Notes: generated from the letters alone by a model not told the origin. Counted from the stretch's first letter, positions 1-16,805 are shown. The stretch is 64,000 bases of DNA from Pseudomonadota bacterium (GCA_041182245.1 JBEGNZ010000010.1:3252-67251), one strand, 5' to 3'. Program-made: numbers and translations.

Positions 1-1772
1 GGTCAACCCGTGAAGCGACCAACCAAAACTCCTTGCAGGCTGACCTTTCCGCGCTGAACTCTGATTTTACGCGCGTGACCTCTGACAACCGAATCGTCCT
101 CAATGGCCTCGTCGGCCTGGGTCTAGAGTTCGGTGACAATAAGCTGCGTTGGACCAATCTTTATATTCGCGACACTCTGAAACATACACGCCTTGGGCTT
201 GGAAACCGGAACCAAACCACTGTCGATTTTATGCAGCAGGACACGTCCTGGTATGAGCGTGAATTGATCGATAGCCAAATCGTGGGCGAGTTCAATCTCA
301 ATGACAATCTGAGCGTTGATGTTCGTGTTGCCTACGCCAACTCAAAACGTAACTCTCCGTACGAACTGACCTTCGAATATGTCCGCACCAATGTGAAGGC
401 GGATCCTTACGGGGCCTATTTCGTCAACCGTTTGAACAATGGTAACGGCGGTGATGCTGTGATCAGCTTCTCCGAGCTGGATGAGAAGCTTTGGTCCGGC
501 GGGGCCGATGCCACCTACAGGCTGAGGGATGGGCTGAGCGGTACAGTCGGTTACGCCTTTGCTGACACTGAGCGCACAAGTTCACGCCGGGACTTCCAGT
601 TCCAAGCCCCCAGCAACTTCCCGCGCGGTGTCGATATGTTCCGCCCTGACCTGCTTCTGGCCCCCGCAGTGATTGAAGCTTTCGGCATAGCGTTGGTTGA
701 AACCAACGAAGGTAACCCAGCCTTCCTTGCGACCCTTCGGAATCAGGCGGGCTACGTCAAGTTTGACTATCAGATGACTGACTCGTTGCAGCTCAATGCC
801 GGCATTCGTTATGAAACCGCCGAGCTAGAAGTTTCACCGATCAAGATCTTCAACACCGCAGGCGCCTCTCTGGCGGGTACAGCGCTCGAAGAAAGCTATT
901 GGCTGCCAGCAGCCACATTGACCTGGCAATTGGCCTCGGACATGCAGCTTCGCGGCAACCTGTCTAAAACCATTGCCCGTCCGCAGTTTCGTGAATTGGT
1001 TTACCAGTTCTACTTCGACCCCGACAGCAACCGCATGTATCGCGGTAACCCGTACTTGGTCGATAGTGAGCTGACCAACGCCGAAGCCCGTTTTGAATGG
1101 TACTTTGACACCGATCAGCGTGTCACGGTCGCCGCTTTCTATAAGCAGATCACCAATCCGATTGAATCCTTCGTCGCCGGCGATGACTTCACGACCAGCT
1201 ACGCCAATGCGCCGCAGGCCAACCTCATTGGTGCCGAGTTTGACGCTCAGAAATATTTCGACCTCTCCGCCCTTGACGGTGATTTCTGGGCCTCACGCCG
1301 GATCGTAGTGAACGGTAACTACACCTACACAATGTCGGAATTGAAGGTCGATAAGAACGACTCCATTTCAGTCTTTGCCTCCTCATCGAAGAACGCCACT
1401 GACTTCTTTAAGGATGGTGCTCAGATGGCCGGCCAGTCGGATCACATTTTCAACGTCCAACTTGGACTTGAAGATCGTGATGCCCTTTCACAACAGACCT
1501 TGATGTTCAACTATGCCAGCAAGCGCGTTTCGAGCCGTGGTCTGGTCAATTCAGGGCAGCCTGACATCTACGCCTATCCCGGCTTCTCGCTGGACTTTGT
1601 CGCACGTCAAGGCGTGGCTGTTGCAGGCCGCGATGTTGAGCTAAAGTTCGAGGCGCGCAATCTGACAGGCCGTAATAACGAAGAATATCAGATTGTTGGT
1701 AGTAACCGCGTTGACATCAATACCTACAAGATGGGTAGCCTGATCTCAGTGTCGGCCCAGATGAAGTTCTAA
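1..1772 (+). CDS. TonB-dependent outer-membrane receptor, C-terminal ~580 aa (5' end lies upstream of the window)
   Basis: The frame is open from the window edge; the track ORF 33..1772 starts at an internal TTG. Long barrel-type sequence ending ...LISVSAQMKF, with the terminal aromatic residue typical of TonB-dependent receptors. Confidence 0.8.
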   Translation, partial: STREATNQNSLQADLSALNSDFTRVTSDNRIVLNGLVGLGLEFGDNKLRWTNLYIRDTLKHTRLGLGNRNQTTVDFMQQDTSWYERELIDSQIVGEFNLNDNLSVDVRVAYANSKRNSPYELTFEYVRTNVKADPYGAYFVNRLNNGNGGDAVISFSELDEKLWSGGADATYRLRDGLSGTVGYAFADTERTSSRRDFQFQAPSNFPRGVDMFRPDLLLAPAVIEAFGIALVETNEGNPAFLATLRNQAGYVKFDYQMTDSLQLNAGIRYETAELEVSPIKIFNTAGASLAGTALEESYWLPAATLTWQLASDMQLRGNLSKTIARPQFRELVYQFYFDPDSNRMYRGNPYLVDSELTNAEARFEWYFDTDQRVTVAAFYKQITNPIESFVAGDDFTTSYANAPQANLIGAEFDAQKYFDLSALDGDFWASRRIVVNGNYTYTMSELKVDKNDSISVFASSSKNATDFFKDGAQMAGQSDHIFNVQLGLEDRDALSQQTLMFNYASKRVSSRGLVNSGQPDIYAYPGFSLDFVARQGVAVAGRDVELKFEARNLTGRNNEEYQIVGSNRVDINTYKMGSLISVSAQMKF

Positions 1773-1859
1773 GCCCTAAAGGGTCACAGACCCTCGTTCG
1801 GCATCGACCGAGCGGGGGTGTTTGACCGGGGTGAAGGGCGGTATAGCGCCCGTTAAGGA

Positions 1860-1900
1860 CTATGACAGCGGCTTGGAATTTAATCCGCACACTGTCATAG
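1860..1900. promoter_or_regulatory. 9-bp perfect inverted repeat CTATGACAG-N23-CTGTCATAG upstream of virB1
   Basis: Read directly: 1860..1868 is the reverse complement of 1892..1900. Confidence 0.6.
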
Positions 1901-1925
1901 AACTGACGTGAAGCTGAGCTAATAG
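1892..1925 (+). promoter_or_regulatory. Candidate PhoB-dependent promoter (Pho-box-like direct repeat plus -10 hexamer)
   Basis: CTGTCATAGAACTGACGT (1892..1909) matches 15/18 positions of the consensus CTGTCATAWAWCTGTCAY. TAATAG at 1920..1925 follows after a 10-nt gap. The virB1 ATG is at 1968. Confidence 0.4.
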
Positions 1926-1967
1926 CGCCATGTCGGTGCTGCCAGCACCCCACCGAAAGCTGCAGTT

Positions 1968-2597
1968 ATGCGCAATCTTGAACCCAATTCTAAGAGCTGC
2001 GTGACAGTTTGCATACAGGGCGCTCTGGTTGGTGCCTTGGCGGGTCTTGCTCTGCTATCCTCTGCGGTCAGTGCTCAAGCGGATGTGATGGAACTGGTCA
2101 CCAATGGCTTTGTCTGGGTGGCGGGAGCCCCCAAGTCCGTCGCGCCAGACCTGGTAGAGGTCGGCCCGCGCGCCGAGCGCAGTTTCACCCATGTCTCAGA
2201 TACGGCGGGTCCCGCAGCCTGGCGCGCTCACATCGCGATGCTCGCGAGAAAATACGATATTAGCCCGGCGCTTTTAGAGGCGGTCGTTTGGCAAGAAAGC
2301 CGTTGGCAAACCAACGCTAGGTCCAGCGCGGGAGCCCATGGGCTGGCGCAGCTGATGCCTGGAACGGCGCGCGAGATGGGCGTAGATATTACCAACCCGC
2401 TGTCGAACCTCGAAGGGGGCGCGCGCTATTTAAAGATCCAGTTGGACCGGTTCGATGGCGACATCGAAAAGGCCTTGGCCGCCTATAATTCGGGGCCGAG
2501 CCGTGTGCTCAGCGCGGGGGGCATTCCTCAAATCCCAGAGACGAAAGCTTATGTTTCTGCGATAATGTCTAGGCTTGCTGAATCTGTGCGGAGGTAG
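1968..2597 (+). CDS. virB1: VirB1-like lytic transglycosylase (SLT domain) with signal peptide
   Basis: N-terminal hydrophobic signal ending SAQA. SLT motifs LLEAVVWQESRW and AHGLAQLMPGTAREMG...AYNSG. First gene of the virB-ordered operon. Confidence 0.85.
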   Translation: MRNLEPNSKSCVTVCIQGALVGALAGLALLSSAVSAQADVMELVTNGFVWVAGAPKSVAPDLVEVGPRAERSFTHVSDTAGPAAWRAHIAMLARKYDISPALLEAVVWQESRWQTNARSSAGAHGLAQLMPGTAREMGVDITNPLSNLEGGARYLKIQLDRFDGDIEKALAAYNSGPSRVLSAGGIPQIPETKAYVSAIMSRLAESVRR

Positions 2598-2602
2598 TCA
2601 AA

Positions 2603-2911
2603 ATGAAAAAATCTCAGCTTTTAGGGCTTGTTGCGTCCATCGCTTCCTTTCCCCTTTCGGCCTATGCACAGGTCACCACCAACCCTCAGGGGTCTGGTCC
2701 GATCGTTGCCGCCCTCAATTGGATTCAAGGCACCCTGTTGGGCAGTGTCGCTACCGCAATCGCCGTCATGGCTGTGGCGACGGTCGGCTTGATGATGCTG
2801 ACGGGTCGGATGAACTGGCGATTTGGCGCGACCGTCATATTGGGCTGCTTCATCCTGTTCGGCGCGGGGGCCATCGTGTCCGGGATCAGATCCGCCGCGG
2901 CCCTCGGTTAA
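2603..2911 (+). CDS. virB2: VirB2/TrbC-type T4SS pilin
   Basis: 102 aa with a signal peptide ending AYAQ, followed by two hydrophobic helices. Position between virB1 and virB3. Confidence 0.8.
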   Translation: MKKSQLLGLVASIASFPLSAYAQVTTNPQGSGPIVAALNWIQGTLLGSVATAIAVMAVATVGLMMLTGRMNWRFGATVILGCFILFGAGAIVSGIRSAAALG

Positions 2912-2917
2912 GCGACG

Positions 2918-3199
2918 ATGGACCTCATCCGTTTTCCAGTACACCGCGCCCTTGCCCGTCCGCAGATGTTTGCGGGCGTGACCTATAGCTATTTCATTAT
3001 CAATGCGGCGGTGACGACCGAGGTCTTTCTCATCACAAAAAGCTTCCTAGCCCTCCCGGTCGCGGTGTTGCTGCATGTTATTGGTTATCTTGCCTGCCTG
3101 CGGGAACCTCGAATTTTCGACCTTTGGTTGACCAAGGTGAGCCGTTGCCCACGGATTTCAAACTGGCGGCGCTGGCGCTGCAACAGCTACGGAACTTGA
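2918..3199 (+). CDS. virB3: VirB3-like T4SS inner-membrane protein
   Basis: 93 aa with the motif ...RPQMFAGV... and one hydrophobic hairpin. Sits immediately before virB4. Confidence 0.75.
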   Translation: MDLIRFPVHRALARPQMFAGVTYSYFIINAAVTTEVFLITKSFLALPVAVLLHVIGYLACLREPRIFDLWLTKVSRCPRISNWRRWRCNSYGT

Positions 3200-3208
3200 G
3201 GAGCGACC

Positions 3209-5626
3209 TTGGTGGGCATGTTTGGCACTATGGGGCGTAGGAGCCGTGAGGCTCTAGCCGGGGACCGCTTGCCCTATGCGAAGCTGCTCGATGACCATGT
3301 CGTCCTGTTGCGCGATGGCTCGGTCATGATGAGCCTCTTGGTGCCCGGCATCAGCTTTGAGACGGCCGATAGTGCCGAGTTAAACGCCTTGGCCGCAACG
3401 CGTGAGCTCATGCTCCGCAGCACTCTGGACGCCCGCTTCGTTCTATATCACCACGTCATCCGCCGCCGCGTTCAGACCGACTTGCGGGGGACATTTGCTG
3501 ATCCCCTGACAGCCCATATTGATCAGTGCTGGGATAACAAACTTTCCAGCGGTGCCCTGTTTGTCAATGATCAGTTCGTAACCCTGCTGCGGCGCCCGGC
3601 TCGCGGGAAGACCGGTTGGGTGGAACGTGTTGCCCGTCAATTGACGCGGTCTCAAGATCGCTCTGAAGGCATCCAAGCCAAACCGCAAGATGTTCGTGAC
3701 CTGCGGGCCGCGGCCAATGCCATGGTGACAACCCTGGGGACCTATGGGGCGCGGCCCTTAAGCAACTATCAGGGCAAGTCCGGGGCCTGTTCGGAAATAT
3801 TGGAGTTTCTCTCCGCCCTCTATAATGGGGAAATGAAACCGGTTCGGCGGCCGTTCGAAGGCACCATGATTGCCAATATGCTGCCCTATAAACGCATCAG
3901 TTTTGGCGCGGACGCCCTTGAACTGAAGGGCGCGGGCAGCAGCAGTTTTGCGGCCTTGGTGTCTCTAAAGGACTATCCCGACACGACCTCGCCGGGCCTG
4001 ACCGACTCCTTGCTCCGAATTCCCTGTGAGATGGTGCTCACAGAAAGCTACGCGCCATCAGATCGCCAAGTGTCTCGTGAACGGATTGACTTGGCCGTGC
4101 GCCGTCTAAGGTCAGCCGATGAAGAGGCCATGGCTGAGCGGGCAGAGCTTCATGCGGCCCGTGATGCCCTGGGATTGGGCGCGGTTGGATTTGGCGACCA
4201 CCATCTGTCCGTCCTCGTGCGCTCTGACTCCCTTGAGACCTTAGATGCGCTGACGGCAGCCTGCGCGGCGGCGCTCGGTGATGCCGGCGCTGTTGCGGTC
4301 CGCGAAGATATGAACCTCGAGCCCGGCTTTTGGGGGCAGATGCCGGGCAATGAATCGCTGATCGTGCGGCGATCCTTGATCTCATCGGGCAATATGGCCT
4401 GCTTTGGCTCGCTTCACGGCTTTGCCTTGGGCCAGGCCGAGGGGAACCATTGGGGTGATCCTGTGGCAGTCCTTGAGACCACCAGCGCAACGCCCTTTTT
4501 CTTCAATTTCCACAATGGCGATCTGGGTAACTTCACGGTCATTGGCCCGTCGGGTTCCGGCAAGACCGTCGTCATGAATTTTCTAGCAGCTCAGGCCCAG
4601 CGGTTTGAGCCACGCACCGTCCTGTTCGACAAGGACCGGGGCGCAGAAGTCTTTATTCGTGGCATTGGCGGTCGCTATAGCCGGATCTCTGCGGGCGAGC
4701 CGACGGGGTTTAATCCACTGGCCCTTCCAGACAGCCCGACCAATCGCGCCTTTCAACGCGACTGGCTCGCTGTTCTGCTCGATGCCAAGGGGTCAGAAGA
4801 GTTGGCCACCATCGCGGCGGCGGTTGATGCGGCCTATGCCAATGATCCCAAACTGCGCCGCCTGTCCCATTTTCAAGAATTGCTGGCCGGTTCGCGCAGG
4901 CCGCAACCGGGCGATCTCGCCTCTCGACTCGCCGCTTGGGTCGGCGAGGGAGAGTTTGGCTGGCTATTTGATCATGCCGAAGACCTTCTAGACCTGTCTG
5001 CCAAGACCCTTGGCTTTGATATGACGAGCCTTCTGGAGACGCCGCGTCTGCGCACGCCGGTGATGATGTACCTGTTCCATCGGATCGAGGAGCGGTTGGA
5101 TGGTCACCCGACCCTGATCCTGATTGATGAGGGCTGGAAGGCCTTGGACGATGAGGTCTTTGCCGCCCGCATTCGCGATTGGCTCAAGACCCTTCGTAAG
5201 CGCAATGGCCTTGTGGGTTTCGCGACCCAATCGGCCCGTGACGCGCTCGATAGCCGCATATCCACGGCGTTGGTTGAGCAGACGGCGACCATGATCTTCA
5301 TGCCCAATGCCAGAGCGCGTGAAGAGGACTATTGTGAGGGATTTGGTCTCACGCTGCATGAACTCGACATCATCCGCAATCTGCCCGCCCACAGCCGCTG
5401 CTTCTTGGTGCGCCAGCCCGATGCCTCGGTTGTGGTTCGGCTGGATCTGTCCTCAATGCCCGAACTGCTCACGGTCCTTTCCGGTCGGGAAACAACCGTC
5501 AGGCAATTGGATCAGCTTCGAAAGCAGGTCGGCGACGCGCCAGAGGCTTGGTATGAGGCCCTCACCGGACATCCGTGGCCCGGCGACGCTTCCCATTGCG
5601 CCGTCCGACCGGAGGCGCGTCAATGA
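3209..5626 (+). CDS. virB4: VirB4 T4SS ATPase
   Basis: 805 aa. Walker A GPSGSGKT and Walker B-like TLILIDEGW. GAGGAG Shine-Dalgarno 6 nt before the TTG at 3209 (GTG 3212 and ATG 3218 are alternatives). Confidence 0.9.
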   Translation: MVGMFGTMGRRSREALAGDRLPYAKLLDDHVVLLRDGSVMMSLLVPGISFETADSAELNALAATRELMLRSTLDARFVLYHHVIRRRVQTDLRGTFADPLTAHIDQCWDNKLSSGALFVNDQFVTLLRRPARGKTGWVERVARQLTRSQDRSEGIQAKPQDVRDLRAAANAMVTTLGTYGARPLSNYQGKSGACSEILEFLSALYNGEMKPVRRPFEGTMIANMLPYKRISFGADALELKGAGSSSFAALVSLKDYPDTTSPGLTDSLLRIPCEMVLTESYAPSDRQVSRERIDLAVRRLRSADEEAMAERAELHAARDALGLGAVGFGDHHLSVLVRSDSLETLDALTAACAAALGDAGAVAVREDMNLEPGFWGQMPGNESLIVRRSLISSGNMACFGSLHGFALGQAEGNHWGDPVAVLETTSATPFFFNFHNGDLGNFTVIGPSGSGKTVVMNFLAAQAQRFEPRTVLFDKDRGAEVFIRGIGGRYSRISAGEPTGFNPLALPDSPTNRAFQRDWLAVLLDAKGSEELATIAAAVDAAYANDPKLRRLSHFQELLAGSRRPQPGDLASRLAAWVGEGEFGWLFDHAEDLLDLSAKTLGFDMTSLLETPRLRTPVMMYLFHRIEERLDGHPTLILIDEGWKALDDEVFAARIRDWLKTLRKRNGLVGFATQSARDALDSRISTALVEQTATMIFMPNARAREEDYCEGFGLTLHELDIIRNLPAHSRCFLVRQPDASVVVRLDLSSMPELLTVLSGRETTVRQLDQLRKQVGDAPEAWYEALTGHPWPGDASHCAVRPEARQ

Positions 5627-6795
5627 GCCAGTGTACCGCCGTTCTGGACGCTGCATCGACGGGGGTCGCACCGGCTCTACGGGCTGTAGACTGTATGAGC
5701 GCGGAGGTGACTTCGGCGGCCTTCACCAATCTATTCGGCTCTAATGGTGCTCTGGTTCCCGCGCTGACCCTAGTCCTCACCCTCTATATCGCGCTCTTTG
5801 CTATTGCCCTGCTCACCGGTCGTTCGAAGATCGGGATCAGCACCCTTACCCCTCGCATGATCACCTTGGGCGTCGTCTTGACCTTTGCGACCAGTTGGGC
5901 GGCCTATCAAAGCGTGGTCTGGAATCTCGCTGTTGGCGCGCCGGACCAGATTGCCAGTGCTCTATTGGGGGTTCGCGGATCGGCGACTCAGCTCTTTGCT
6001 GACAAGATTGATATACTTTTCAACGTCATTACCGAGACGGCCCAAACGGTTGGTGGTCCTGGCGCGCGGCCCACGCTGCAGGGGGCCTTCACGCCGGTCA
6101 ATCTGATGTGGCTGGCGGGCATGTTCTTGATGCTGGGCACGGTCGGTATATTGGTGACAGCGCGGATTGCCTTGGCGGTGTTGTTGGCCGTGGGGCCTGT
6201 CTTTGTGACCTTCATTCTGTTTAACGGAACACGGGGCCTATTTGCCGGATGGCTGAGGGGCGTGATCCTGACCGCCATCACCCCGCTGTTTGCGGTGCTC
6301 GGTGGCGGATTGATGATCGAGTTGGCGACCCCGATCGTGGTTGCCCTTCGCGCAAGTGAGGTTCTTGATCCGAGGGCGGCCATGGCCCTGTTTATTTTCT
6401 CCATCGTCCATTGTGCGCTCATGGCCCTCGGCATCAGCGTAGCGTCAGCGATGGTTTCCGGATGGCAGGTCTTTGGAACGGCCAACGCGTCCAACGGCGA
6501 ACAGGCGAGCGGTCTAAGGACCGACCAATCTGTCGGTGGCGCCAATAACGCCTATGGGGCTTCGACGGCGGCGGCACTGTCTCGCAGTCAGAGTTTGACG
6601 GCCAGTGTGATTGCCGCCAATGCCGTTGGCGGATCGAGTGCGGCGGCGAGTGCAACCACAGCAACGAACCGAACTATCGTCAATACGATCACAGGGACAG
6701 GTTCCGCGATCGGCTCGGGAGCACCAGCCAGATCGCGTGGAATCGGTAGCCGGTTTGCCAGCCGCCCCCCTGTCTCTCGGGAGTTCATAAGATGA
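5623..6795 (+). CDS. virB6: VirB6/TrbL-family polytopic T4SS membrane protein with an Ala/Ser/Gly-rich C-terminal tail
   Basis: Multiple hydrophobic segments. The ATG at 5623 overlaps the virB4 stop (ATGA), so I prefer it to the track start at 5575. The tail from about 6480 is low complexity. Confidence 0.8.
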   Translation: MSQCTAVLDAASTGVAPALRAVDCMSAEVTSAAFTNLFGSNGALVPALTLVLTLYIALFAIALLTGRSKIGISTLTPRMITLGVVLTFATSWAAYQSVVWNLAVGAPDQIASALLGVRGSATQLFADKIDILFNVITETAQTVGGPGARPTLQGAFTPVNLMWLAGMFLMLGTVGILVTARIALAVLLAVGPVFVTFILFNGTRGLFAGWLRGVILTAITPLFAVLGGGLMIELATPIVVALRASEVLDPRAAMALFIFSIVHCALMALGISVASAMVSGWQVFGTANASNGEQASGLRTDQSVGGANNAYGASTAAALSRSQSLTASVIAANAVGGSSAAASATTATNRTIVNTITGTGSAIGSGAPARSRGIGSRFASRPPVSREFIR

Positions 6796-7610
6796 AAATC
6801 TATCTCGCGCTGCTGGCCGCAACCCTGTCCCTGACCCTTGGCACCCCAGCCATGGCGAAGGATGCTCGGCTGGCAACCCGCCCCTATAATGCCGATGAGA
6901 TTGTGGTCTTGCCGGGACGTGTCGGTGTGCAAGCGACCATTATATTTGGCGATGACGAGCATATTGAAAATGTGGCCATCGGCGACTCAAACAGCTGGCA
7001 GGTGACGCCGAACAAGCGCGCGAATCTGCTGTTCGTAAAACCCTTGGCCGCCCAAGCCCAGACCAACCTAACGGTTGTGACCGATCGCCATACCTATCTC
7101 TTTGACCTGGTTGCCGGTTCAGGTGTGCCCCATTACGTCTTGCGCTTCACCTACCCAGATGCCGTCAAGGCCAAGGCTCTCGCCGTCGGGGCCATGAGCG
7201 CAGAAGAGGCCGAGGCCGCGAAAAATCCGAACGCCGTCAAGGGCGGACAGCCGCCCTCTGCCCTAAACTTTGCCTGGACCAGTAAGGGGAGCGCAAGAAT
7301 CTTGCCGACCCGTATCTATGACGACGGGGTCTCAACCTATCTCAGCTGGGCTAAGGGTCGTCCTGTTCCGGCCATCTTGCTTCGGGATGACAAGGGCGCA
7401 GAGGGCGCAACCAACTATGCGGTGCGTGGGGACCTGATCGTACTGGATAATGTACCCAAGGTGATTGTCTTGCGGGCGGGCATTGATGTGGCAACCTTGA
7501 AAAATCAAGGCCCCGTCCCGTCTGAAACGGCGTCGGCTGATCCAAATCCGCAATCGGCGACCGCGTCGGACGTCAAGCCGCCGCTACCGGCGGCTGATCG
7601 GGGGCAATGA
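6792..7610 (+). CDS. virB9: VirB9/TrbG-family T4SS outer-membrane core protein
   Basis: Signal peptide ending PAMA. Characteristic VirB9 N-domain pattern ...EIVVLPGRVGVQATIIFGDDEHIENVAIGDSNSWQVTP...LLFVKP...TNLTVVTDRHTYLFDL. ATGA overlap with virB6. Confidence 0.85.
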   Translation: MKIYLALLAATLSLTLGTPAMAKDARLATRPYNADEIVVLPGRVGVQATIIFGDDEHIENVAIGDSNSWQVTPNKRANLLFVKPLAAQAQTNLTVVTDRHTYLFDLVAGSGVPHYVLRFTYPDAVKAKALAVGAMSAEEAEAAKNPNAVKGGQPPSALNFAWTSKGSARILPTRIYDDGVSTYLSWAKGRPVPAILLRDDKGAEGATNYAVRGDLIVLDNVPKVIVLRAGIDVATLKNQGPVPSETASADPNPQSATASDVKPPLPAADRGQ

Positions 7611-8704
7611 CCATGTCTGGACCCTCTTCCCCGAACCCTCGCTTGACCTCTTCAGAGGATACAGATCCGCGCTCGGCCATGGGATCGAATGCGGCCGATC
7701 TGGCCACCCGATCTGTCCTGCCCCTTGTTGCCCATAAGGCGTCGGCTTCAGACGGACTTGGGTTGATATTGGGTATAGCCGTGATTGGGATCCTCGGGGT
7801 TGTGACCTTCTTGGGGGTCAATGGTGGCCGTCAAAAGCCAGCGCCCGAGCAGCCCGCGCCCGCGCAAGCCGTTGTTCCGGCACCCGTCGTGCAACCGGTA
7901 GAGCAGGCCCCGCCGGTCCCGGTTGAGGCCATCACCCCGCCGCCCGCGCCATTGCCGGTTCCTGCGCCAGCGCCGATTGGTATTGCCGGGCCTGCGGCAA
8001 ACCCCTTTTCGACGCCAACGGTTCTGTTCGATGCCAGCGCCCTGCCGCCGTCTATTGTACCGGGCGCTGGTCCAGCCGCAGCCTCCCCTGGCGGGCCAAA
8101 TGATGAGTTCGCCGCGCGGGTTGGCGGTGTTGGCGGCGGCAGCGCCATTGCTGCTGCAGGTATAAATCCCAAGGCCACCGTGACCCAGGGCACCTTGATC
8201 CCCGCGGTTCTCGAGACGGCGATCGATACGGATGTGCCCGGCTATCTTCGCGCCATCGTCTCCAGCGATGTGCGTAGTTTCGATGGAACAGTCGTCCTCA
8301 TTCCCCATTCTTCGCGCCTGATCGGCCAGTATAAGAGTGGCATGCAGGCGGGCCAAAAGCGCGCCTATGTCATTTGGACTCGGCTGATCCGCCCCGATGG
8401 CGTCTCGGTCAATATTGCTTCGCCTGCCGTTGGATTTGGCGGGGAGACCGGGCTTCCGGGTAAGGTCAATAACCATTTCTTCGAACGGTTCGGCTCGGCG
8501 ATGCTCCTATCGGTCATCGGCGGCATCTCCAGTTCGGGCAGCAACAATGCCACCGTGCTCATCGGCAGCCAGGCCCAATCGGCCGCCGCCGCCGCCGTTG
8601 GTCAGTCCGGTCAGATTGGTCCGACCATTCGCGTGCGCCAAGGCGAGCCCATTCGCGTCTTTACCGCCCGCGACCTCGATTTTTCGAAGGTCACAACCGA
8701 ATGA
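7607..8704 (+). CDS. virB10: VirB10/TrbI-family T4SS protein
   Basis: Cytoplasmic N-terminus, one TM segment (LGLILGIAVIGILGVVTFLGV), a Pro-rich linker, and a C-terminal TrbI-type domain (GTLIPAVLETAIDTDVPG...). ATGA overlap with virB9. Confidence 0.85.
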   Translation: MTMSGPSSPNPRLTSSEDTDPRSAMGSNAADLATRSVLPLVAHKASASDGLGLILGIAVIGILGVVTFLGVNGGRQKPAPEQPAPAQAVVPAPVVQPVEQAPPVPVEAITPPPAPLPVPAPAPIGIAGPAANPFSTPTVLFDASALPPSIVPGAGPAAASPGGPNDEFAARVGGVGGGSAIAAAGINPKATVTQGTLIPAVLETAIDTDVPGYLRAIVSSDVRSFDGTVVLIPHSSRLIGQYKSGMQAGQKRAYVIWTRLIRPDGVSVNIASPAVGFGGETGLPGKVNNHFFERFGSAMLLSVIGGISSSGSNNATVLIGSQAQSAAAAAVGQSGQIGPTIRVRQGEPIRVFTARDLDFSKVTTE

Positions 8705-9681
8705 GGGACGCCGTTCCGTTGATCCCGCGAAGCCCCTATCTGGATGCCTATCTGGCGCCTTTTCAGCCGTGGTTGGAAAAGCAAACTGTGACGGAAATTC
8801 TCGTCAACCGTCCAGGAGAGCTCTGGATCGAGGACGCAACATGCAAGGGCATGCAGCGTATCGAGGCGCCCAAGGTCGACGATATCTTGTTACAGCGGTT
8901 GTCTGAACAGGTCGCCCGCATCAGCCATCAGGGGATCAACCGCGAAAACCCCCTCCTGTCGGCCACCCTGCCCACCGGTGAACGGATCCAGCTTTGCGGT
9001 CCGCCCGCCACCCGCAGCCATTGGGCCTTGGCCATTCGGCGCCATCGGCTCTTGGATATTTCACTGGAATCCTATGATCCAGGTCCCCTTCAGCCGGTCG
9101 TGGACCATCCGCCAATCGATCCGTCCCTTGAGCCTATTCTGTTCTTGAGAGACGCCATTCTTCGGCGGCAAACCATTTTGATCTCGGGCGGGACATCCAC
9201 CGGTAAGACGACTTTTCTCAATTCAATGTTGCGCGAAATTCCGAGTGAAGAACGCGTGGTCCTTGTCGAAGATACGGCTGAGCTAAAGTTAGCGGGAGCC
9301 AACGGCGTTGGCCTGATCGCGGTCAAGGGCGAGACGGGCGAGGCGCGGATATCCACGGACGACCTGTTGCAAGCGGCCTTGCGCCTGCGACCTGACCGGA
9401 TTGTCTTGGGTGAGTTGCGCGGTCGCGAGACGGTGAGTTTCTTGCGCGCGATCAATACGGGCCATCCGGGCTCCTTTTCGACGATCCATGCCAATTCGCC
9501 GCGCGGAGCCTTAGAGCAGATCGCGCTTATGGCCATGCAGACCGGCATCGGCCTGACCCGGCGCGAGACCATTGAATATGCCGCCTCTGTCATTGATGTG
9601 GTTGTGCAGCTTGAGCGGCGCGACGGTCGACGCCAGATCTCGGCGCTAGCCTCTGCTCGAGATCTTGTTTCGCCGTCATAG
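8701..9681 (+). CDS. virB11: VirB11 T4SS traffic ATPase
   Basis: 326 aa. Walker A GGTSTGKTT, then ...VLVEDTAEL and GHPGSFSTIHA motifs. ATGA overlap with virB10. Confidence 0.9.
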   Translation: MRDAVPLIPRSPYLDAYLAPFQPWLEKQTVTEILVNRPGELWIEDATCKGMQRIEAPKVDDILLQRLSEQVARISHQGINRENPLLSATLPTGERIQLCGPPATRSHWALAIRRHRLLDISLESYDPGPLQPVVDHPPIDPSLEPILFLRDAILRRQTILISGGTSTGKTTFLNSMLREIPSEERVVLVEDTAELKLAGANGVGLIAVKGETGEARISTDDLLQAALRLRPDRIVLGELRGRETVSFLRAINTGHPGSFSTIHANSPRGALEQIALMAMQTGIGLTRRETIEYAASVIDVVVQLERRDGRRQISALASARDLVSPS

Positions 9682-9764
9682 CGACCACCGCGACTGCCCC
9701 TGCCTCATGGGGGCCGAACTTGAACTGTCTATCGGTTATTTCACGCCTCAAGAGGGAAGACTAA

Positions 9765-10808
9765 GTGATGAAAAACTATCTTGCCATGGCCGCGGCCGTC
9801 GCCCTGTTGCCCTCTGCCAGCAGTGCCCAGGCTGCACGGGATTATGTGTGGGCCGCGGGTTCCTCAACCCTTTTCCCCTTCTCCACGCGGGTTGCGGAAA
9901 ACTTTGCCAAAAAGACGGGCCGCAAGGCGCCGAAGGTCGAATCGCTGGGCACTGGCGGCGGCATCAAGCTGTTTTGCTCGGGTTCGGGTGAAGGCTTCCC
10001 AGACATTGCCAATGCCTCACGTCCGATGAAGCGCTCGGAATTTGACCAGTGCCAGAAGAAGGGCGTGAAGGATATCATCCAGCTTAAGATCGGCTTTGAC
10101 GGCATTGCTGTCGCCGTCGACAAGGATGGCAGCAACTATAATCTGACGACCCAAAATCTTTATCAGGGCCTTGCTGCCAATGTTGTGCGCAATGGCCAGT
10201 TCGTTAAAAACCCCCACAAAAAGTGGAGCGATGTTGCTGCTGGGCTGCCGACCAATCGTATCTTGGTCTATGGGCCGCCGCCCACCTCTGGCACCCGCGA
10301 TGCCTTTATCGAGCTAGGGATCGAAGCCGGAGCGCTGAAGTTCCCCGTTGCTGCGGCGCTGAAGGCTTCGAGCGAGCCTCAGTTTAAGGCCAAGGTTGAT
10401 CCCTTGCGTGAAGATGGTGGCTGGATCGATTCTGGCGAGAACGACAATGCCATCATCGGGACCCTGACCAAGACACCGGGGGCTATGGGCGTGTTCGGCT
10501 ATTCGTTCCTCGAAGAGAATGTCGACAAGGTCAAGGGTGCCTCGGTTAACGGTGTTCGTCCGACCGCCAAGAGCATCACGGATGGCACCTATCCCCTGTC
10601 TCGCTCGCTCTATATCTACGTCAAGAAGTCGATGATTGGTGTCACACCGGGCCTGAAGGAATTTGTCAGCGAATATGTGTCTGACGCAGCCACGGGTCGC
10701 GGCGGCTATCTGCAGGGTCGGGGCCTAATCATTCTGCCGCCCGCCCAGCACGAAGCCAATAAGGCCGCCGTGAAGACTCTCATGCCCATGAAGCGCCCTG
10801 CGGGCTAG
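9765..10808 (+). CDS. PstS-family periplasmic phosphate-binding protein (PBP type 2), orphan
   Basis: Sec signal peptide ending SSAQA. N-terminal motif WAAGSSTLFPFSTRVAENF, like phosphate-binding proteins. An ATG at 9768 is an alternative start. No pstCAB genes adjacent. Confidence 0.75.
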   Translation: MMKNYLAMAAAVALLPSASSAQAARDYVWAAGSSTLFPFSTRVAENFAKKTGRKAPKVESLGTGGGIKLFCSGSGEGFPDIANASRPMKRSEFDQCQKKGVKDIIQLKIGFDGIAVAVDKDGSNYNLTTQNLYQGLAANVVRNGQFVKNPHKKWSDVAAGLPTNRILVYGPPPTSGTRDAFIELGIEAGALKFPVAAALKASSEPQFKAKVDPLREDGGWIDSGENDNAIIGTLTKTPGAMGVFGYSFLEENVDKVKGASVNGVRPTAKSITDGTYPLSRSLYIYVKKSMIGVTPGLKEFVSEYVSDAATGRGGYLQGRGLIILPPAQHEANKAAVKTLMPMKRPAG

Positions 10809-10831
10809 GGTCAAGTTTGATTGAGACAAAC

Positions 10832-10863
10832 AGAAGCCCGGTTGCAAGAACAGCCGGGCTTCT
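10832..10863. terminator. Hairpin between convergent genes (possible bidirectional terminator)
   Basis: AGAAGCCCGG (10832..10841) pairs with CCGGGCTTCT (10854..10863) across a 12-nt loop. T-rich tract follows. Confidence 0.5.
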
Positions 10864-10897
10864 TGCTTCTATCGGTGGAGGGGCCGTGCGGGCTGGC

Positions 10898-12001
10898 CTA
10901 TTGCGGCGGCTGAGCCTTGCGCCTCAGGCGGGCCAGACGGCGAAGGCGGCGCCAGAAGCGGGCCTTTTCGGGCTCTGGATAGGGTTCCAGATTGCGGATG
11001 AATTCTTCGGTCGAGGCGCGCCAGCTATAGGTCAGGGCAAAGGCGCGAACATCCTTGCGGTCGAGCTTGAGGCAGTCAAGACAGGCCTGCTGCATGGCTT
11101 CAAGGCTTTCATCGGCCGCCAAGACCCCCGCGCCGGAGCCGGGAATGATGTCGATCGGACCGGGGGCTGGAAAGCCCGCGACAGGCGTTCCGCAGCCCAT
11201 GGCCTCAAGGATCACCAGGCCGAAAGTGTCGGTCAGGGACGGGAAGACAAAACAGTCTGCATCAGCAAAATGGGCGGCAAGCTCATCACCAAACTTAGCG
11301 CCGAGAAAGACTGCGCCGGGATATTTGGCCTCGAGCTCTTCGCGCTGAGGCCCGTCGCCGACAATGACCTTGGTGCCGGGAAGGTCCAGTTCCAAGAAGG
11401 TCTCGATGTTCTTTTCCACGGCAATTCGACCGACATTGAGCCAGATCGGACGGGGCAGGTCGCCATAAACCCCCTCGCGGCCATCCATGCCGATGGGACG
11501 GAAGAGGTCGGTGTCTACGCCTCGTGTCCAGGGCGAAATATTGTGAAAGCCCCGCGCCAGCAACTCGTCGCGAAAGGTCGGTGTGGCCACCATCAGGCGT
11601 CCTGACGGCTCGTGGAACCAGCGCATATAGGCATAGCCTGCGGCCAGCGGCAGGGGTACGCGGGCGGAGACATATTCAGGGAATTTCGTATGGTAGCTGG
11701 TGGTGAATGGCAGCTTCCATTCTAGGCAGATCCGACGCGCCGCCAGGCCGATCGGGCCTTCGGTGGCGATGTGGATCGCTTCGGGCTCAAAGGACTTGAA
11801 CCGGTCTTGAATGGGCTCATAGGTCCCGATGGCCAGCTTGATTTCCGGATAGGTCGGCAAGGGGAAGGTCTTGAACTGGTCCGGCGAGATCACATCGACC
11901 TGATGGCCCATGGCGCGGCACTCGGCGATGGTACGGCTGAGCGTCCGCACGACCCCATTGACCTGAGGCTCCCAAGCATCGGTGGCCAGCAAGATCCGCA
12001 T
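10898..12001 (-). CDS. Family 4 (group 1) glycosyltransferase, candidate Agt-type glycolipid synthase
   Basis: 367 aa. N-terminus MRILLATDAWEPQVNGVV and the ...FVFPSLTDTFGLVILEAMGCGTPV motif are typical of GT4. Start codon overlaps the stop of the upstream metallophosphoesterase (ATGA at 11999..12003). Confidence 0.8.
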   Translation of the reverse strand: MRILLATDAWEPQVNGVVRTLSRTIAECRAMGHQVDVISPDQFKTFPLPTYPEIKLAIGTYEPIQDRFKSFEPEAIHIATEGPIGLAARRICLEWKLPFTTSYHTKFPEYVSARVPLPLAAGYAYMRWFHEPSGRLMVATPTFRDELLARGFHNISPWTRGVDTDLFRPIGMDGREGVYGDLPRPIWLNVGRIAVEKNIETFLELDLPGTKVIVGDGPQREELEAKYPGAVFLGAKFGDELAAHFADADCFVFPSLTDTFGLVILEAMGCGTPVAGFPAPGPIDIIPGSGAGVLAADESLEAMQQACLDCLKLDRKDVRAFALTYSWRASTEEFIRNLEPYPEPEKARFWRRLRRLARLRRKAQPPQ

Positions 12002-12825
12002 CAGGCTATGGCTCGCCCGTTAAGGGCCGGACGCTCGGTTCGATCCGACCGGCGCTCTATCATCGACCACGACCGCATCTTGGCCCACTCCAACAGTTCT
12101 AGCCGTCCGTCCATATGTTCGACGAGGGCGGTACAGCTCTCCACCCAATCGCCGTCATTTATATAGGTGATGCCGTCAATATCACGCATCTCGGCCTTGT
12201 GAATATGGCCGCAGATCACCCCGTCAACACCGCGACGTCGAGCCTCATCAGCGACCGCACCTTCGAAGTTCTCGATGAATTGTAAGGCGTTCTTCACTTT
12301 GCCCTTCAGGAATGCCGACAGGCTCCAATAGCCAAAACCCATCTTTCGTCGCGCATGGTTGAACAGGGTGTTCAGCATAAGGATCGTTCTATAGGACCAA
12401 TCACCGAGGAAGGCGAGCCACTTGGCATGTTGGACGACGCCGTCGAACTCATCACCGTGGGTGACCAAGAAGGTACGCCCATCAACCGTCGTGTGGATGG
12501 CGTCGCGGGCGATCACCACCCCGCCAAAATGGACGCCGCAATAGTCTCGTGCGACCTCATCATGGTTGCCGGGCACATAGATCACCGCCGTACCCTTGCG
12601 GGCCATCCGAAGAACCTTTTGAACCACATCATTATGGGCCTGAGGCCAGTGCCAGCCGCCCTTGAGCTTCCAGCCGTCAATGATGTCGCCGATCAGATAA
12701 AGCCGTTCGCATTCCATACTGCGAATGAAGTCGAGCAGCAGTTCGGCCTGACATCCGCGCGTGCCCAAATGAACATCTGAAATGAAGACCGATTTAAAGC
12801 CAAGGATGGGGACGTCTGACGTCAT
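12001..12825 (-). CDS. LpxH/PlcP-family metallophosphoesterase (usually annotated UDP-2,3-diacylglucosamine diphosphatase; context suggests PlcP-type phospholipase C)
   Basis: Metallophosphoesterase motifs ISDVHLG, GDIIDGW, GNHDE, HGDEFD and GHIH. Translationally coupled to the GT4 gene. Confidence 0.8.
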   Translation of the reverse strand: MTSDVPILGFKSVFISDVHLGTRGCQAELLLDFIRSMECERLYLIGDIIDGWKLKGGWHWPQAHNDVVQKVLRMARKGTAVIYVPGNHDEVARDYCGVHFGGVVIARDAIHTTVDGRTFLVTHGDEFDGVVQHAKWLAFLGDWSYRTILMLNTLFNHARRKMGFGYWSLSAFLKGKVKNALQFIENFEGAVADEARRRGVDGVICGHIHKAEMRDIDGITYINDGDWVESCTALVEHMDGRLELLEWAKMRSWSMIERRSDRTERPALNGRAIA

Positions 12826-12850
12826 GAGGCGGTCCGTTGTGCAGGTCTGC

Positions 12851-12866
12851 TCAGCCCATGGGCAGA
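12851..12866. promoter_or_regulatory. Imperfect palindrome TCAGCCCATGGGCAGA (core GCCCATGGGC perfect), nested in a longer GGTCTGC...GCAGACC inverted repeat (12844..12868)
   Basis: Read directly. Lies in the divergent region between the metallophosphoesterase gene and the TetR gene. Confidence 0.4.
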
Positions 12867-13020
12867 CCCGTTCGACCTAAGCTGATTGCGTGTCTCTTTT
12901 GTGAAATTGCAGCCTTGGCCCCTTGCCGATTATGGCGGGGTTGGATCCGGCGTGTATGAACACTATCTAGCGCGGGGGCCTGCTTCGCGACGGTTGGTAG
13001 ATAGGCTATTGAAACGGCAG

Positions 13021-13662
13021 ATGAGCGACAGTGCAGAGATGAGCCGTTCAGCAAAGGACACCCCCAAGTCTGTTCGGACTCGGGTGCGCATACTCGACGC
13101 CGCCATGACCCTGTTCGCGGAAATCGGCTATCATGCCGCCAACAATGCTCGGATCGCTGAGGCGGCGGACCTGACGCGCGGGGCTATGCTCTATCATTTT
13201 GTCTCGCGCGAAGACCTGGTCGACGCCGCCATCGGTCACATCCAGACTCAGCGTAATGCCCTGTTTGAGGCAGCAGCAAAGGACATTGGTCCGGGCGAAG
13301 ATGTCAGCGAGCACGCCATCGAGTCCTACTGGCAACTGCTCCACACGGTGCCCTATATCGCCTTTGCGGAGTTGGAGGCTGTGGCCCGCACGGACGCAAC
13401 GGTTCGTGCCTGTCTGGCGACCGCGCAGGAGGCCTTTGATCGCGCGCAGATTGGCGGTCAGTCGACGGCGATGGTCAGTGCTGGAGCAGGTCCGAGGTTC
13501 CAAACAACCCGAGATTTGGCCCGTTTCATGCTGGAGGGTCTGGCACGCGGTGGCGTGACCTATGATCAGGAGGCGCGGACCGAACGGTTGCTGACCGTCA
13601 TTAAACGCGCCACCCACATGCTGAACCGTAAGGGGTCGGTGCAGGATCTTTGGCCAGACTAG
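13021..13662 (+). CDS. TetR-family transcriptional regulator
   Basis: HTH region RILDAAMTLFAEIGYHAANNARIAEAADLTRGAMLYHF. I prefer the ATG at 13021 to the track start at 12886. Confidence 0.8.
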   Translation: MSDSAEMSRSAKDTPKSVRTRVRILDAAMTLFAEIGYHAANNARIAEAADLTRGAMLYHFVSREDLVDAAIGHIQTQRNALFEAAAKDIGPGEDVSEHAIESYWQLLHTVPYIAFAELEAVARTDATVRACLATAQEAFDRAQIGGQSTAMVSAGAGPRFQTTRDLARFMLEGLARGGVTYDQEARTERLLTVIKRATHMLNRKGSVQDLWPD

Positions 13663-15641: not shown

Positions 15642-16805
15642 ATGAGTCGCGCCTCGCTCTTCAGCTTCTATGAGTTCTTTGCCGGGGGCGGGATGGCGCG
15701 TGCGGGGCTCGGTGCGGACTGGACCTGTCGCCTTGCCAATGACCTCGACCCAGCCAAAGCAGCCGCCTATCGCACCAACTGGGGTGAGGGGGACCTGATT
15801 GAGGCCAATGTCTGGGATCTTACCCCCGAGGACTTGCCCGGCACCGCCGATCTGGTCTGGGCCTCCTCTCCCTGTCAGGACCTCAGCCTTGCTGGCCCTC
15901 GCGCGGGCCTTTCGGGGCAAAGGTCTTCAGCCTTTTGGGGTTTTTGGCGGCTCATTGAGGCCCTAGATGAACAGGGCCGAGCGCCCGGCGTCATCGTTAT
16001 CGAAAATGTCGTCGGCCTTTTGACCTCGCGCGGTGGGCATGACTTTACCGCGATCTGTGAGGCCTTGGCGGCGCACAACTATCGGTTCGGGGCGCTCGAG
16101 ATCAATGCCGCCCATTTTGTACCCCAGTCTCGGCCCCGCCTGTTTCTCATCGCGACACGGTCTGAGGCGTTGGCCTGTGCAGAGCCCGGACCTTGGCATG
16201 GGACCAGCGCGCGCTTGGCCGCAGCACGATTGCCAGACGCCCTCAAACCCTTTTGGCGGTGGTGGCGTCTGCCTCAGCCTGACGCCCGAAATGCAGCCTT
16301 GGGCGACCTGCTCGAGCCTGATGATCAGGTGATTTGGCATTTGCCGGAACAGACCCAAGCCATACTCGCCCTCATGGCCCCGCTCCATCGCCACCGTCTG
16401 GAACAGGCTGCGGCGCAGGCGAGGCTTGATGGGCAGCGGCAGGTGGGGGCGCTCTTTCGCCGGACGCGGCAAGAGCAGGGCCGCACGCAGCAACGCGCCG
16501 AGGTGCGGTTTGACGGGCTAGCGGGCTGCCTTCGCACCGCGCGCGGCGGCTCCTCGCGTCAGACCGTGGTCGTGATTGATCCGACCTTCGAAGATGCTGC
16601 CGTGCGCACAAGGCTGATGTCGCCGCGCGAAGGGGCAAGGCTGATGGGACTGGGTGATGACTATATCCTGCCCAAAGGGGCGGCGGCGGCCTTAACCCTT
16701 GTCGGAGACGGGGTGGTGGTTCCGGTCGTGGCCTTTCTCGAACGACACCTGCTGCGTCAGATGGTGAAAGCCTGCCAATCTACAAGACAAGCGGCGCAAG
16801 ACTGA
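15642..16805 (+). CDS. dcm: DNA (cytosine-5) methyltransferase, apparently orphan
   Basis: Motif I FFAGGGM, motif IV SPCQDLS, motif VI ENV, motif VIII QSRPRLF, and C-terminal GDGVVVPV. Confidence 0.85.
   Translation: MSRASLFSFYEFFAGGGMARAGLGADWTCRLANDLDPAKAAAYRTNWGEGDLIEANVWDLTPEDLPGTADLVWASSPCQDLSLAGPRAGLSGQRSSAFWGFWRLIEALDEQGRAPGVIVIENVVGLLTSRGGHDFTAICEALAAHNYRFGALEINAAHFVPQSRPRLFLIATRSEALACAEPGPWHGTSARLAAARLPDALKPFWRWWRLPQPDARNAALGDLLEPDDQVIWHLPEQTQAILALMAPLHRHRLEQAAAQARLDGQRQVGALFRRTRQEQGRTQQRAEVRFDGLAGCLRTARGGSSRQTVVVIDPTFEDAAVRTRLMSPREGARLMGLGDDYILPKGAAAALTLVGDGVVVPVVAFLERHLLRQMVKACQSTRQAAQD

Follow-up and report, generated by a model that had tools for sequence, protein, structure and literature searches.

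The 64,000-nucleotide stretch of Pseudomonadota DNA analysed here (GCA_041182245.1, JBEGNZ010000010.1:3252-67251; hereafter the window) carries a reduced type IV secretion system (T4SS) of eight virB genes, with a candidate Pho box ahead of virB1, a pairing met again in ~60 other alphaproteobacterial genomes, and a gene of the pstS family, encoding a periplasmic phosphate-binding protein, behind virB11. The reading put forward is that this T4SS would be a Pho-box-controlled machine of the cell envelope, joined to pstS by operon fusion and serving in phosphorus scavenging, to which a probability of about 0.6 is assigned. One component of it, activation of the virB1 promoter by a PhoB-type regulator from a box at the putative -35 position, is very probable. 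The features and their coordinates are collected in Table 1.

Genes were called from an open reading frame (ORF) listing together with Pfam and NCBIfam scans of the window. The operon comprises intact virB1-B2-B3-B4-B6-B9-B10-B11, of which the products VirB2, VirB3, VirB6, VirB9, VirB10 and VirB11 each exceed the Pfam gathering score. VirB4 retains both Walker A (GPSGSGKT) and Walker B (LILIDE) motifs and matches R388 TrwK at E 3e-123, and VirB11 has an intact Walker A motif (GGTSTGKTT) and matches Brucella VirB11 (2gza) at E 2e-41. The layout of VirB10 is typical, with a transmembrane segment, a Pro-rich linker and a C-terminal barrel, and VirB9 scores 181 bits on TIGR02781, under the cut-off of 217.7. 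Consecutive virB genes overlap, as do virB6 and virB9, or are separated by gaps of less than 10 nt, and therefore leave no room for an unannotated gene between them. Within the window lineage, ratios of non-synonymous to synonymous substitution (dN/dS) for all eight genes lie at 0.03-0.15 (virB1 0.15, measured against locus L006; virB2 0.08; virB3 0.03), denoting purifying selection, with pstS similar at 0.07.

A family scan, restricted to one genome per species, returned 80 loci, referred to by L numbers where they need to be told apart. VirB4 homologues 70-81% identical to that of the window occur in Phenylobacterium, Novosphingobium and many Erythrobacteraceae, and across the ~80 loci, spread over Sphingomonadales and Caulobacterales, VirB4 identity spans 70-97%. 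When these were searched by tblastn with the window proteins, virtually every locus of sufficient length proved to contain these eight genes in an unchanged order. The closest plasmid VirB4, from a system that has VirB8, shows 52.7% identity; the remaining plasmid matches reach at most 44%. An origin from a plasmid or conjugative element was considered and rejected, given this closest plasmid match, the presence of VirB8 in its system and the lack of a conserved integrase or relaxase gene nearby, no search aimed at these having been made. The operon is best described as a distinct, chromosomal and selectively maintained minimal T4SS family of Sphingomonadales and some Caulobacterales, and not as a decaying conjugation system.

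Departures from the common gene set were seen at individual loci. In Novosphingobium sp. G106 (L088) virB10 is the last gene of the operon; a glutamate dehydrogenase gene comes next, and a divergent ABC transporter lies upstream. Sphingomonas sp. RS6 (L093) has, in this order, a lipoprotein-receptor pair, a gene for a VirB11-like ATPase, which is the only virB gene at the locus, and the same dehydrogenase. Both look like variant or decayed forms. A single assembly of Tsuneonella troitsensis has VirB4 matches at the edges of four different contigs (L022, L023, L061, L063), which suggests at least two near-identical operon copies that break the assembly.

Queries for VirB8, VirB5 and VirD4 were taken from two plasmid systems and searched by tblastn against the window and all loci with 10-kb flanks. 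The two VirB8 queries gave no match in the window or in ~90 loci, and no Pfam VirB8 domain occurs in any ORF of the operon. VirB5 and VirD4 likewise had no match, either in the 64-kb window or in the loci and their flanks. Control queries in the same search matched 63 loci for VirB6 and 77 loci for VirB10. VirB7 also had no tblastn match; the sequence search is weak for such short, divergent proteins, and the absence of coding space is the stronger argument. A fusion of VirB6 with VirB8 was rejected, as the C-terminal ~100 amino acids of VirB6 form a Ser/Ala/Gly-rich low-complexity sequence with no folded VirB8-like domain. No relaxase-like ORF is present among the conserved neighbours, no relaxase query having been run, and the same neighbours include no integrase gene, with no search aimed at integrases or relaxases having been made.

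The Pho-box consensus searched for was CTGTCAT-N4-CTGTCAT, that is, two 7-bp direct repeats with a 4-bp spacer. The direct repeat at 1892-1909 differs from it by 2 mismatches and is followed by a third repeat, CTGAGCT, phased at 11 bp. It lies on the coding strand in the 196-bp gap before virB1, 3' of a strong hairpin which closes the receptor gene. A putative -10 element, GCTAATAG, lies 8 nt past the box. In the close relatives L004, L006 and L007-L009 the box is the same or near-identical. Although it is the sole site with at most 2 mismatches in the 64-kb window, 0.27 such sites are expected and at least one occurs in 25% of shuffles; the statistics of the window taken singly are weak, and the case rests on comparative data. 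A weight matrix built from Sphingomonadales sites only ranks the virB1 site 3rd of 127,966 window positions. The sites that outscore it, at 29358-29375 (minus strand, 12.0 bits) and 32434-32451 (minus strand, 10.8 bits), both apparently lie inside ORFs.

Upstream of the box, CTATGACAG (1860-1868) is the exact reverse complement of CTGTCATAG (1892-1900), which consists of the first Pho half-site and 2 further nt. The resulting 9-bp inverted repeat, with its arms 23 nt apart, is kept in L009, has one mismatch in L004 and is not found in L006. It may represent an extra inverted half-site, or the site of another regulator.

Searching all loci (1.75 Mb, both strands) placed 57 of the 81 sites with at most 2 mismatches within 360 nt upstream of virB1 on the coding strand, and 16 of the 20 sites with at most 1 mismatch in the same region. 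This region makes up ~0.8% of the positions searched, giving a ~300-fold enrichment. Counted by locus, a virB1 upstream site is present in 56 of 78 at no more than 2 mismatches and in 65-66 of 78 at no more than 3, with 50 more distant loci carrying yTGTCAY-N4-yTGTCAT at the homologous position. Among 63 virB1-upstream sequences, all different from one another, information is close to zero in the 30 nt upstream of the box and in the 4-nt spacer, reaches 1.4-2.0 bits on the two half-sites and is also raised on a short element ~10 nt downstream. In Sphingomonadales a conserved TAnnCA-like element stands 6 nt past the box, and the ribosome-binding site and start codon follow ~40 nt past it. Conservation confined to the half-sites is the mark of a constrained, putative binding site, not of recent common descent, and the variable spacers and flanks argue against simple inheritance of the boxes.

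The same motif precedes other phosphorus genes. In Asticcacaulis (L091) the best matrix site in 21 kb, at 21.8 bits, stands directly before pstSCAB, and the next two lie before a lipoprotein gene. A site also precedes phnC in L009 (20.0 bits) and L001 (18.3 bits), as well as the L001 porin gene (12.7 bits). In several Sphingomonadales loci, extra boxes face a divergent lipoprotein-receptor operon and an adjacent regulator gene. The motif is, by all appearances, the Pho box of these organisms.

The genes around the T4SS point in the same direction. Directly 3' of virB11, and on the same strand, ppk and ppx are found in 43 loci (Erythrobacteraceae; L021-L086, at ~16.6-20.4 kb in locus coordinates), and in Novosphingobium ppx lies upstream of the T4SS. 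A PhoB-like regulator of 228 amino acids, a member of the OmpR/PhoB family, stands beside the module in 37 Sphingomonadales loci (e.g. L038:2652-3338). On the PhoB model, for which the cut-off is 296 bits, it reaches 129, and its receiver is atypical, with the phospho-acceptor Asp kept and the N-terminal acidic pair changed to TTST; in several loci its gene is preceded by a Pho box. In addition, a pair of genes for a lipoprotein and a TonB-dependent receptor adjoins the T4SS in ~50 loci, in tandem with it in Caulobacterales and divergent in Sphingomonadales and one Phenylobacterium. Asticcacaulis has this pair directly upstream of pstSCAB, with no T4SS. As judged from these neighbourhoods, at least three different arrangements appear to tie the T4SS to phosphorus genes, the arrangement in the window being a fourth.

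The lipoprotein (L009:4222-5787; L091:10001-11563) has a lipobox, LSSC, followed by a Thr/Pro-rich linker, and is 62-98% identical across Caulobacterales and Sphingomonadales, where it is annotated only as hypothetical. No match was obtained in Pfam or NCBIfam, nor any sequence match to solved structures. An AlphaFold model (pLDDT 81) gives a right-handed beta-helix, and the acidic motifs NSSDDG.EFFGG, GADDDSLDVD and EIDSNGNE are invariant. In 37 loci of Sphingomonadales (L038:7980-8558 and 36 others) the lipoprotein gene and the Pho box are separated by a gene for a small TPR protein, which is absent from the window lineage. Its likely true start, MIATLTLAPLMLAQAA, gives a product of ~125 amino acids with a signal-like N-terminus.

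Comparison of related loci shows how the window arrangement came about. It is shared by L004 and L006, with PstS 88-91% identical, and by the 262-kb contig L009, which extends beyond the window start and there carries phnCDE, a gene for the 521-amino-acid lipoprotein, the full receptor gene of 897 amino acids and virB1. L001 (PstS 83%) and Caulobacter mirabilis (L003) carry phnCDE, an OprP-type porin gene and pstS, next to agt-plcP-tetR, with no T4SS. Between L001 and L009, homology ends at the end of phnE and returns 12-15 nt ahead of the start codon of pstS; in the interval, a 12.5-kb lipoprotein-receptor-virB module stands in place of a 1.6-kb porin cassette. The porin promoter, which bears a Pho box in L001, was lost in the replacement. 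Because phnCDE-porin-pstS and agt-plcP exist without a T4SS in L001 and C. mirabilis, PstS and PlcP-Agt are taken as the older residents of this Caulobacteraceae Pho neighbourhood and the T4SS as the newcomer.

In the window lineage pstS is probably the last, ninth gene of the virB transcript, since there is no terminator between virB11 and pstS (nor any significant RNA structure in this spacer, z = 0.1) and a strong hairpin follows pstS. Placing pstS in this transcript would only be sensible if the transcript is made under phosphate limitation.

A preliminary description of this DNA had drawn the promoter, the T4SS, pstS and plcP-agt as one 11-kb block (1860-12825), a possible phosphate-starvation island. 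As a single conserved unit the block does not survive the synteny comparison, which reveals a lineage-specific mosaic, with the T4SS-PstS-PlcP adjacency limited to the window and three related loci. It was also incomplete as first drawn, for the receptor gene cut by the window start and the lipoprotein gene upstream of it belong to the module. What remains of the island, with strong support from the comparison, is the association of the T4SS with a Pho box (56 of 78 loci) and with phosphorus genes, in the form of recurrent ppk-ppx, the PhoB-like regulator and the lipoprotein-receptor pair. The individual components that it had listed were all recovered, namely a Pho-box-like promoter at 1892..1925, on the right strand and in the gap before virB1, a T4SS with no coupling protein at 1968..9681, a Sec-exported PstS homologue transcribed in the same direction as virB (here placed at 9768-10808) and a convergent PlcP/Agt-like operon at 12825..10898.

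The PstS-family protein has a signal peptide ending in ...SSAQA, followed by A, and matches a solved phosphate-binding protein (PDB 9jwy) at E 1e-73; on TIGR02136 it scores 155.7 bits, under the cut-off of 206.6. The matrix gives no score above background before pstS in the window. Genes for pstCAB are not adjacent; the pstS of C. crescentus is likewise not encoded beside pstCAB (PMC11208175), and therefore their absence here is no argument against PstS function. The plcP-agt pair lies on the minus strand, convergent with pstS, and the hairpin between pstS and agt is likely a bidirectional terminator. Agt is encoded 3' of PlcP, the order termed 'type 2' and reported for Erythrobacter sp. NAP1 and SAR11 (Sebastian et al., PMC4796936). 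The likeness to the PlcP-Agt lipid-remodelling operon, a metallophosphoesterase gene followed by a GT4 gene, was drawn by gene order and Pfam, and the window pair adjoins other phosphate genes. It differs in having no good upstream Pho box, the best matrix score in 12826-13030 being 0.3 bits and the only candidate a weak ATTTCAC-aaaa-GAGACAC, and in predating, and being independent of, the T4SS, with plcP conserved beside pstS in relatives both with and without one. The neighbouring TetR ORF (12886-13662) as listed begins at TTG; relatives point to a start near 13022 (ATGAGCGAC), which would give a plcP-tetR intergenic region of ~195 bp.

The mechanism envisaged is as follows. Under phosphate limitation, phosphorylated PhoB would bind the box at the -35 position and switch on virB1-11; in some Sphingomonadales the adjacent PhoB-like paralogue may also act on the virB1 box. 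In the window lineage the 12.5-kb module, encoding a beta-helix surface lipoprotein, a TonB-dependent receptor and virB1-11, has taken the place of a phosphate-selective porin. The T4SS would form an envelope-spanning channel and/or pilus working from the periplasm outward, a direction suggested by the lack of a coupling protein to recruit cytoplasmic DNA or effectors in the canonical manner. What is kept, namely the pilin, the transglycosylase, VirB3/B4, VirB6, VirB9/B10 and VirB11, makes up the channel through the envelope and the pilus. Such a machine might carry a periplasmic factor outward or present it at the surface, or it might build a pilus, and the gene set comes closest to these modes because VirB1 and VirB11 are present; this periplasm-outward function is proposed with low confidence. 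Together with the co-regulated lipoprotein-receptor pair and PstS, the T4SS would serve to obtain phosphorus from a macromolecule; its close linkage to a nutrient receptor and a surface lipoprotein points to uptake of some phosphorus-containing substrate. In its widest form the proposal, offered tentatively and at somewhat less than even odds, is of a previously unrecognised class of T4SS, chromosomal and without VirB8, VirB5, VirD4 or a relaxase, that would be conserved within the PhoB regulon of Sphingomonadales and of some Caulobacterales and, with the lipoprotein/TonB-receptor pair, form a phosphorus-scavenging organelle. Extracellular DNA, or a different phosphorylated polymer, might for example be captured or imported by this organelle; alternatively, it might release a scavenging factor from the periplasm.

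Several points weigh against the proposal of a phosphate-controlled T4SS. Both the control and the function are read from sequence, the function from gene content and neighbourhood. The count of Pho-box sites in the window by itself is not significant, and the window box is the weakest of the set, with CTGACGT as its second half-site and 10.5 bits against 18-25 in Sphingomonadales. Even with 3 mismatches allowed, 12 of the 78 loci have no site, including Phenylobacterium deserti (best 1.9 bits) and L014 (7.8 bits); P. deserti and a few metagenome-assembled genomes have degenerate boxes only and no phosphorus genes nearby. Many of the loci are related Erythrobacteraceae, such that the counts are not independent events. 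In Sphingomonadales the adjacent atypical PhoB-like regulator, not PhoB, could read the box. VirB8, VirB5 or VirD4 could be encoded elsewhere in the genome, the search having covered the window and the 10-kb flanks. Finally, Foldseek returned only weak, generic matches for the lipoprotein, to alginate/pectate lyases and phage tailspikes (E > 1e-3, TM 0.2-0.3), and with matches to solved structures generic only, an inference of the substrate from the fold was rejected.

The T4SS could instead be a DNA-uptake machine, in which extracellular DNA would be imported across the outer membrane in the manner of ComB and degraded in the periplasm, with PstS and the receptor collecting the products. As in ComB, no VirD4 was found and no relaxase is seen among the conserved neighbours; the Pho-box control and the adjacent phosphate uptake genes would suit such a task, and VirB10 gives a sub-threshold match to ComB10. 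However, this match reaches 86 bits against a cut-off of 300, compared with 203 bits on the VirB10 model. ComB is without VirB1 and VirB11 and keeps ComB7 and ComB8, and the present gene set is the reverse, with VirB1 and VirB11 present and no equivalents of ComB7 or ComB8 found. Furthermore, genes for a nuclease, ComEA and ComEC are not conserved within 10 kb of ~80 loci, and uptake of DNA by this machine is judged rather unlikely.

A pilus acting in adhesion only, similar to Bartonella Trw, would serve starved cells for attachment to particles, algae or other cells, with no substrate being transported. The retention of the pilin, VirB1, both ATPases and the core complex is compatible with it, as is the failure to find a coupling protein, pilus biogenesis in Agrobacterium being independent of VirD4. 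Parts expected of it are missing, however: VirB5, the pilus-tip adhesin amplified in Trw, was not found, and neither were VirB7 and VirB8, which are needed for pilus formation in Agrobacterium. The tight linkage to a nutrient receptor would also be left unexplained, making this a doubtful account.

It has further to be asked which protein reads the direct repeat. Should this be the dedicated PhoB-like paralogue, the T4SS might answer to a signal other than phosphate, a possibility raised by the conservation of the 228-amino-acid regulator in 37 loci, its atypical receiver and the occurrence of the same motif before its own gene in several of them. Yet the motif also precedes bona fide Pho genes (pstSCAB in L091, phnC in L009 and L001, the porin gene in L001), the neighbouring genes ppk-ppx, pstS and phnCDE are all phosphorus-related, and a regulator of this kind was found neither in the 64-kb window nor in the flanks sequenced for its close relatives; a signal unrelated to phosphate is accordingly considered improbable. 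The view least able to account for the data is that of a decaying integrated conjugative element which came to lie beside phosphate genes by chance and whose Pho-box match is a coincidence; it can appeal to the local absence of VirB8 and VirD4 matches, to the lack of a relaxase among conserved neighbours, to a single 2-mismatch site that is unsurprising in the window alone and to the lineage-specific nature of the block, but is contradicted, to the point of being hardly tenable, by eight genes kept intact in ~80 genomes under the selection described above, by the enrichment of the motif at one position with a footprint pattern, and by conserved neighbours that include no integrase or relaxase gene, no search aimed at these having been made.

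Under the preferred reading of a phosphate-controlled envelope T4SS, the closest known systems are those of the MPF-T VirB/Trw group, such as Agrobacterium VirB/D4, R388 Trw and pKM101, which have homologous VirB1, B2, B3, B4, B6, B9, B10 and B11 in the canonical order. The window family differs from them in having no detected VirB5, VirB7, VirB8 or VirD4 and in its distance from the nearest plasmid VirB4. Unlike them, it is encoded on the chromosome, is widely conserved among free-living alphaproteobacteria of water and soil, and has a candidate Pho box in place of a vir box or plasmid transfer regulator. T4SSs without VirD4, as here, are known in Bordetella Ptl, Brucella VirB, Bartonella Trw and Helicobacter ComB. 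They provide precedents for the three models considered above: Ptl for export, of a substrate that reaches the periplasm by Sec, Trw for adhesion and ComB for the import of DNA. To our knowledge, all of these systems keep a VirB8 homologue, most keep VirB7, and none is Pho-regulated or linked to a TonB-dependent receptor.

Phosphate control of a whole secretion apparatus has been described for type II secretion. The Hxc type II system of Pseudomonas is controlled by PhoB. The PhoB regulon of C. crescentus also contains a type II system, together with several TonB-dependent receptors and PstSCAB (PMC11208175; PMC2996285). Hxc and the C. crescentus type II system with ElpS resemble the present proposal in combining an entire secretion apparatus, PhoB control and phosphorus scavenging, but neither is homologous to the window T4SS. 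For type IV systems, the virG promoter of Agrobacterium is said, after work by Winans in 1990, to be induced by phosphate starvation. Starvation thereby raises VirG, which still requires plant phenolics, and this is the only type IV link to phosphate starvation known to us. It resembles the present case in linking phosphate starvation to expression of a VirB T4SS; the link is, however, indirect and concerns a complete DNA-transfer machine with VirD4, whereas here the box stands directly at the virB1 promoter. The earlier statement that a phosphate-controlled secretion machine has no known type IV precedent agrees with the searchable full-text literature, in which neither a T4SS driven by a Pho box nor the present minimal family was found to be described; many subscription journals lie outside it, and an earlier description is possible.

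T4SSs have been studied for conjugation, effector delivery and bacterial killing, and a role in nutrient starvation is essentially unexplored. Erythrobacter, Citromicrobium, Novosphingobium and freshwater Caulobacteraceae are among its carriers here, alphaproteobacteria abundant in the sea, in fresh water and in soil; if controlled by PhoB, the present family would be a fourth type of secretion system at their disposal in phosphate starvation. It would moreover exemplify a naturally working T4SS that dispenses with VirB8, VirB5 and a coupling protein, with a bearing on how much of the apparatus is indispensable. Standard genetics can be applied to several carriers, which are culturable type strains; the window lineage itself is uncultured.

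Table 1. Features of the virB-pstS-plcP region, in window coordinates.
Feature	Coordinates	Strand	Basis
TonB-dependent receptor gene, 3' part	1..1772	+	Pfam TonB_dep_Rec_b-barrel; truncated by window start
Terminator-like hairpin after receptor gene	1790..1826	+	12-bp GC-rich stem, then UGUUUGA
Candidate Pho-box promoter	1892..1925	+	CTGTCAT-agaa-CTGACGT at 1892-1909; third repeat CTGAGCT at 1914-1920; -10-like GCTAATAG at 1918-1925
virB1, lytic transglycosylase, N-terminal signal sequence	1968..2597	+	Pfam SLT, 86 bits
virB2, pilin	2603..2911	+	Pfam TrbC/VirB2; signal peptide and two hydrophobic segments
virB3	2918..3199	+	Pfam VirB3, 90 bits
virB4, ATPase	3209..5626	+	TIGR00929, 735.6 bits against cut-off 643.1
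virB6	5623..6795	+	Pfam TrbL/VirB6; start 5623 per gene calls in L004, L006
virB9	6792..7610	+	Pfam CagX, 162 bits
virB10	7607..8704	+	Pfam TrbI, 177 bits
virB11, ATPase	8701..9681	+	TIGR02788, 303 bits against cut-off 250
pstS-family periplasmic phosphate-binding protein	9768..10808	+	Pfam PBP_like_2, 151 bits
Hairpin between convergent pstS and agt	10832..10870	.	13-bp stem, -34 kcal/mol, z = -4.2
agt-like GT4 glycosyltransferase	10898..12001	-	Pfam Glyco_transf_4, Glycos_transf_1, Glyco_trans_1_4
plcP-like metallophosphoesterase	12001..12825	-	Pfam Metallophos; DxH, GD, GNHD, GH motifs

A generic scan for promoters and terminators was set aside, its matches being no commoner than in shuffled sequence. 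Targeted RNA folding was informative, and the fold of 1773-1845, spanning the hairpin after the receptor gene, has -40.2 kcal/mol and z = -4.7 against shuffles. Further along the window, a gene for a C-5 cytosine DNA methyltransferase (15642-16805) has no visible restriction partner and keeps its position in relatives with and without the T4SS. In L009 a thiolase gene between this methyltransferase gene and that of a DUF1330 protein is missing.

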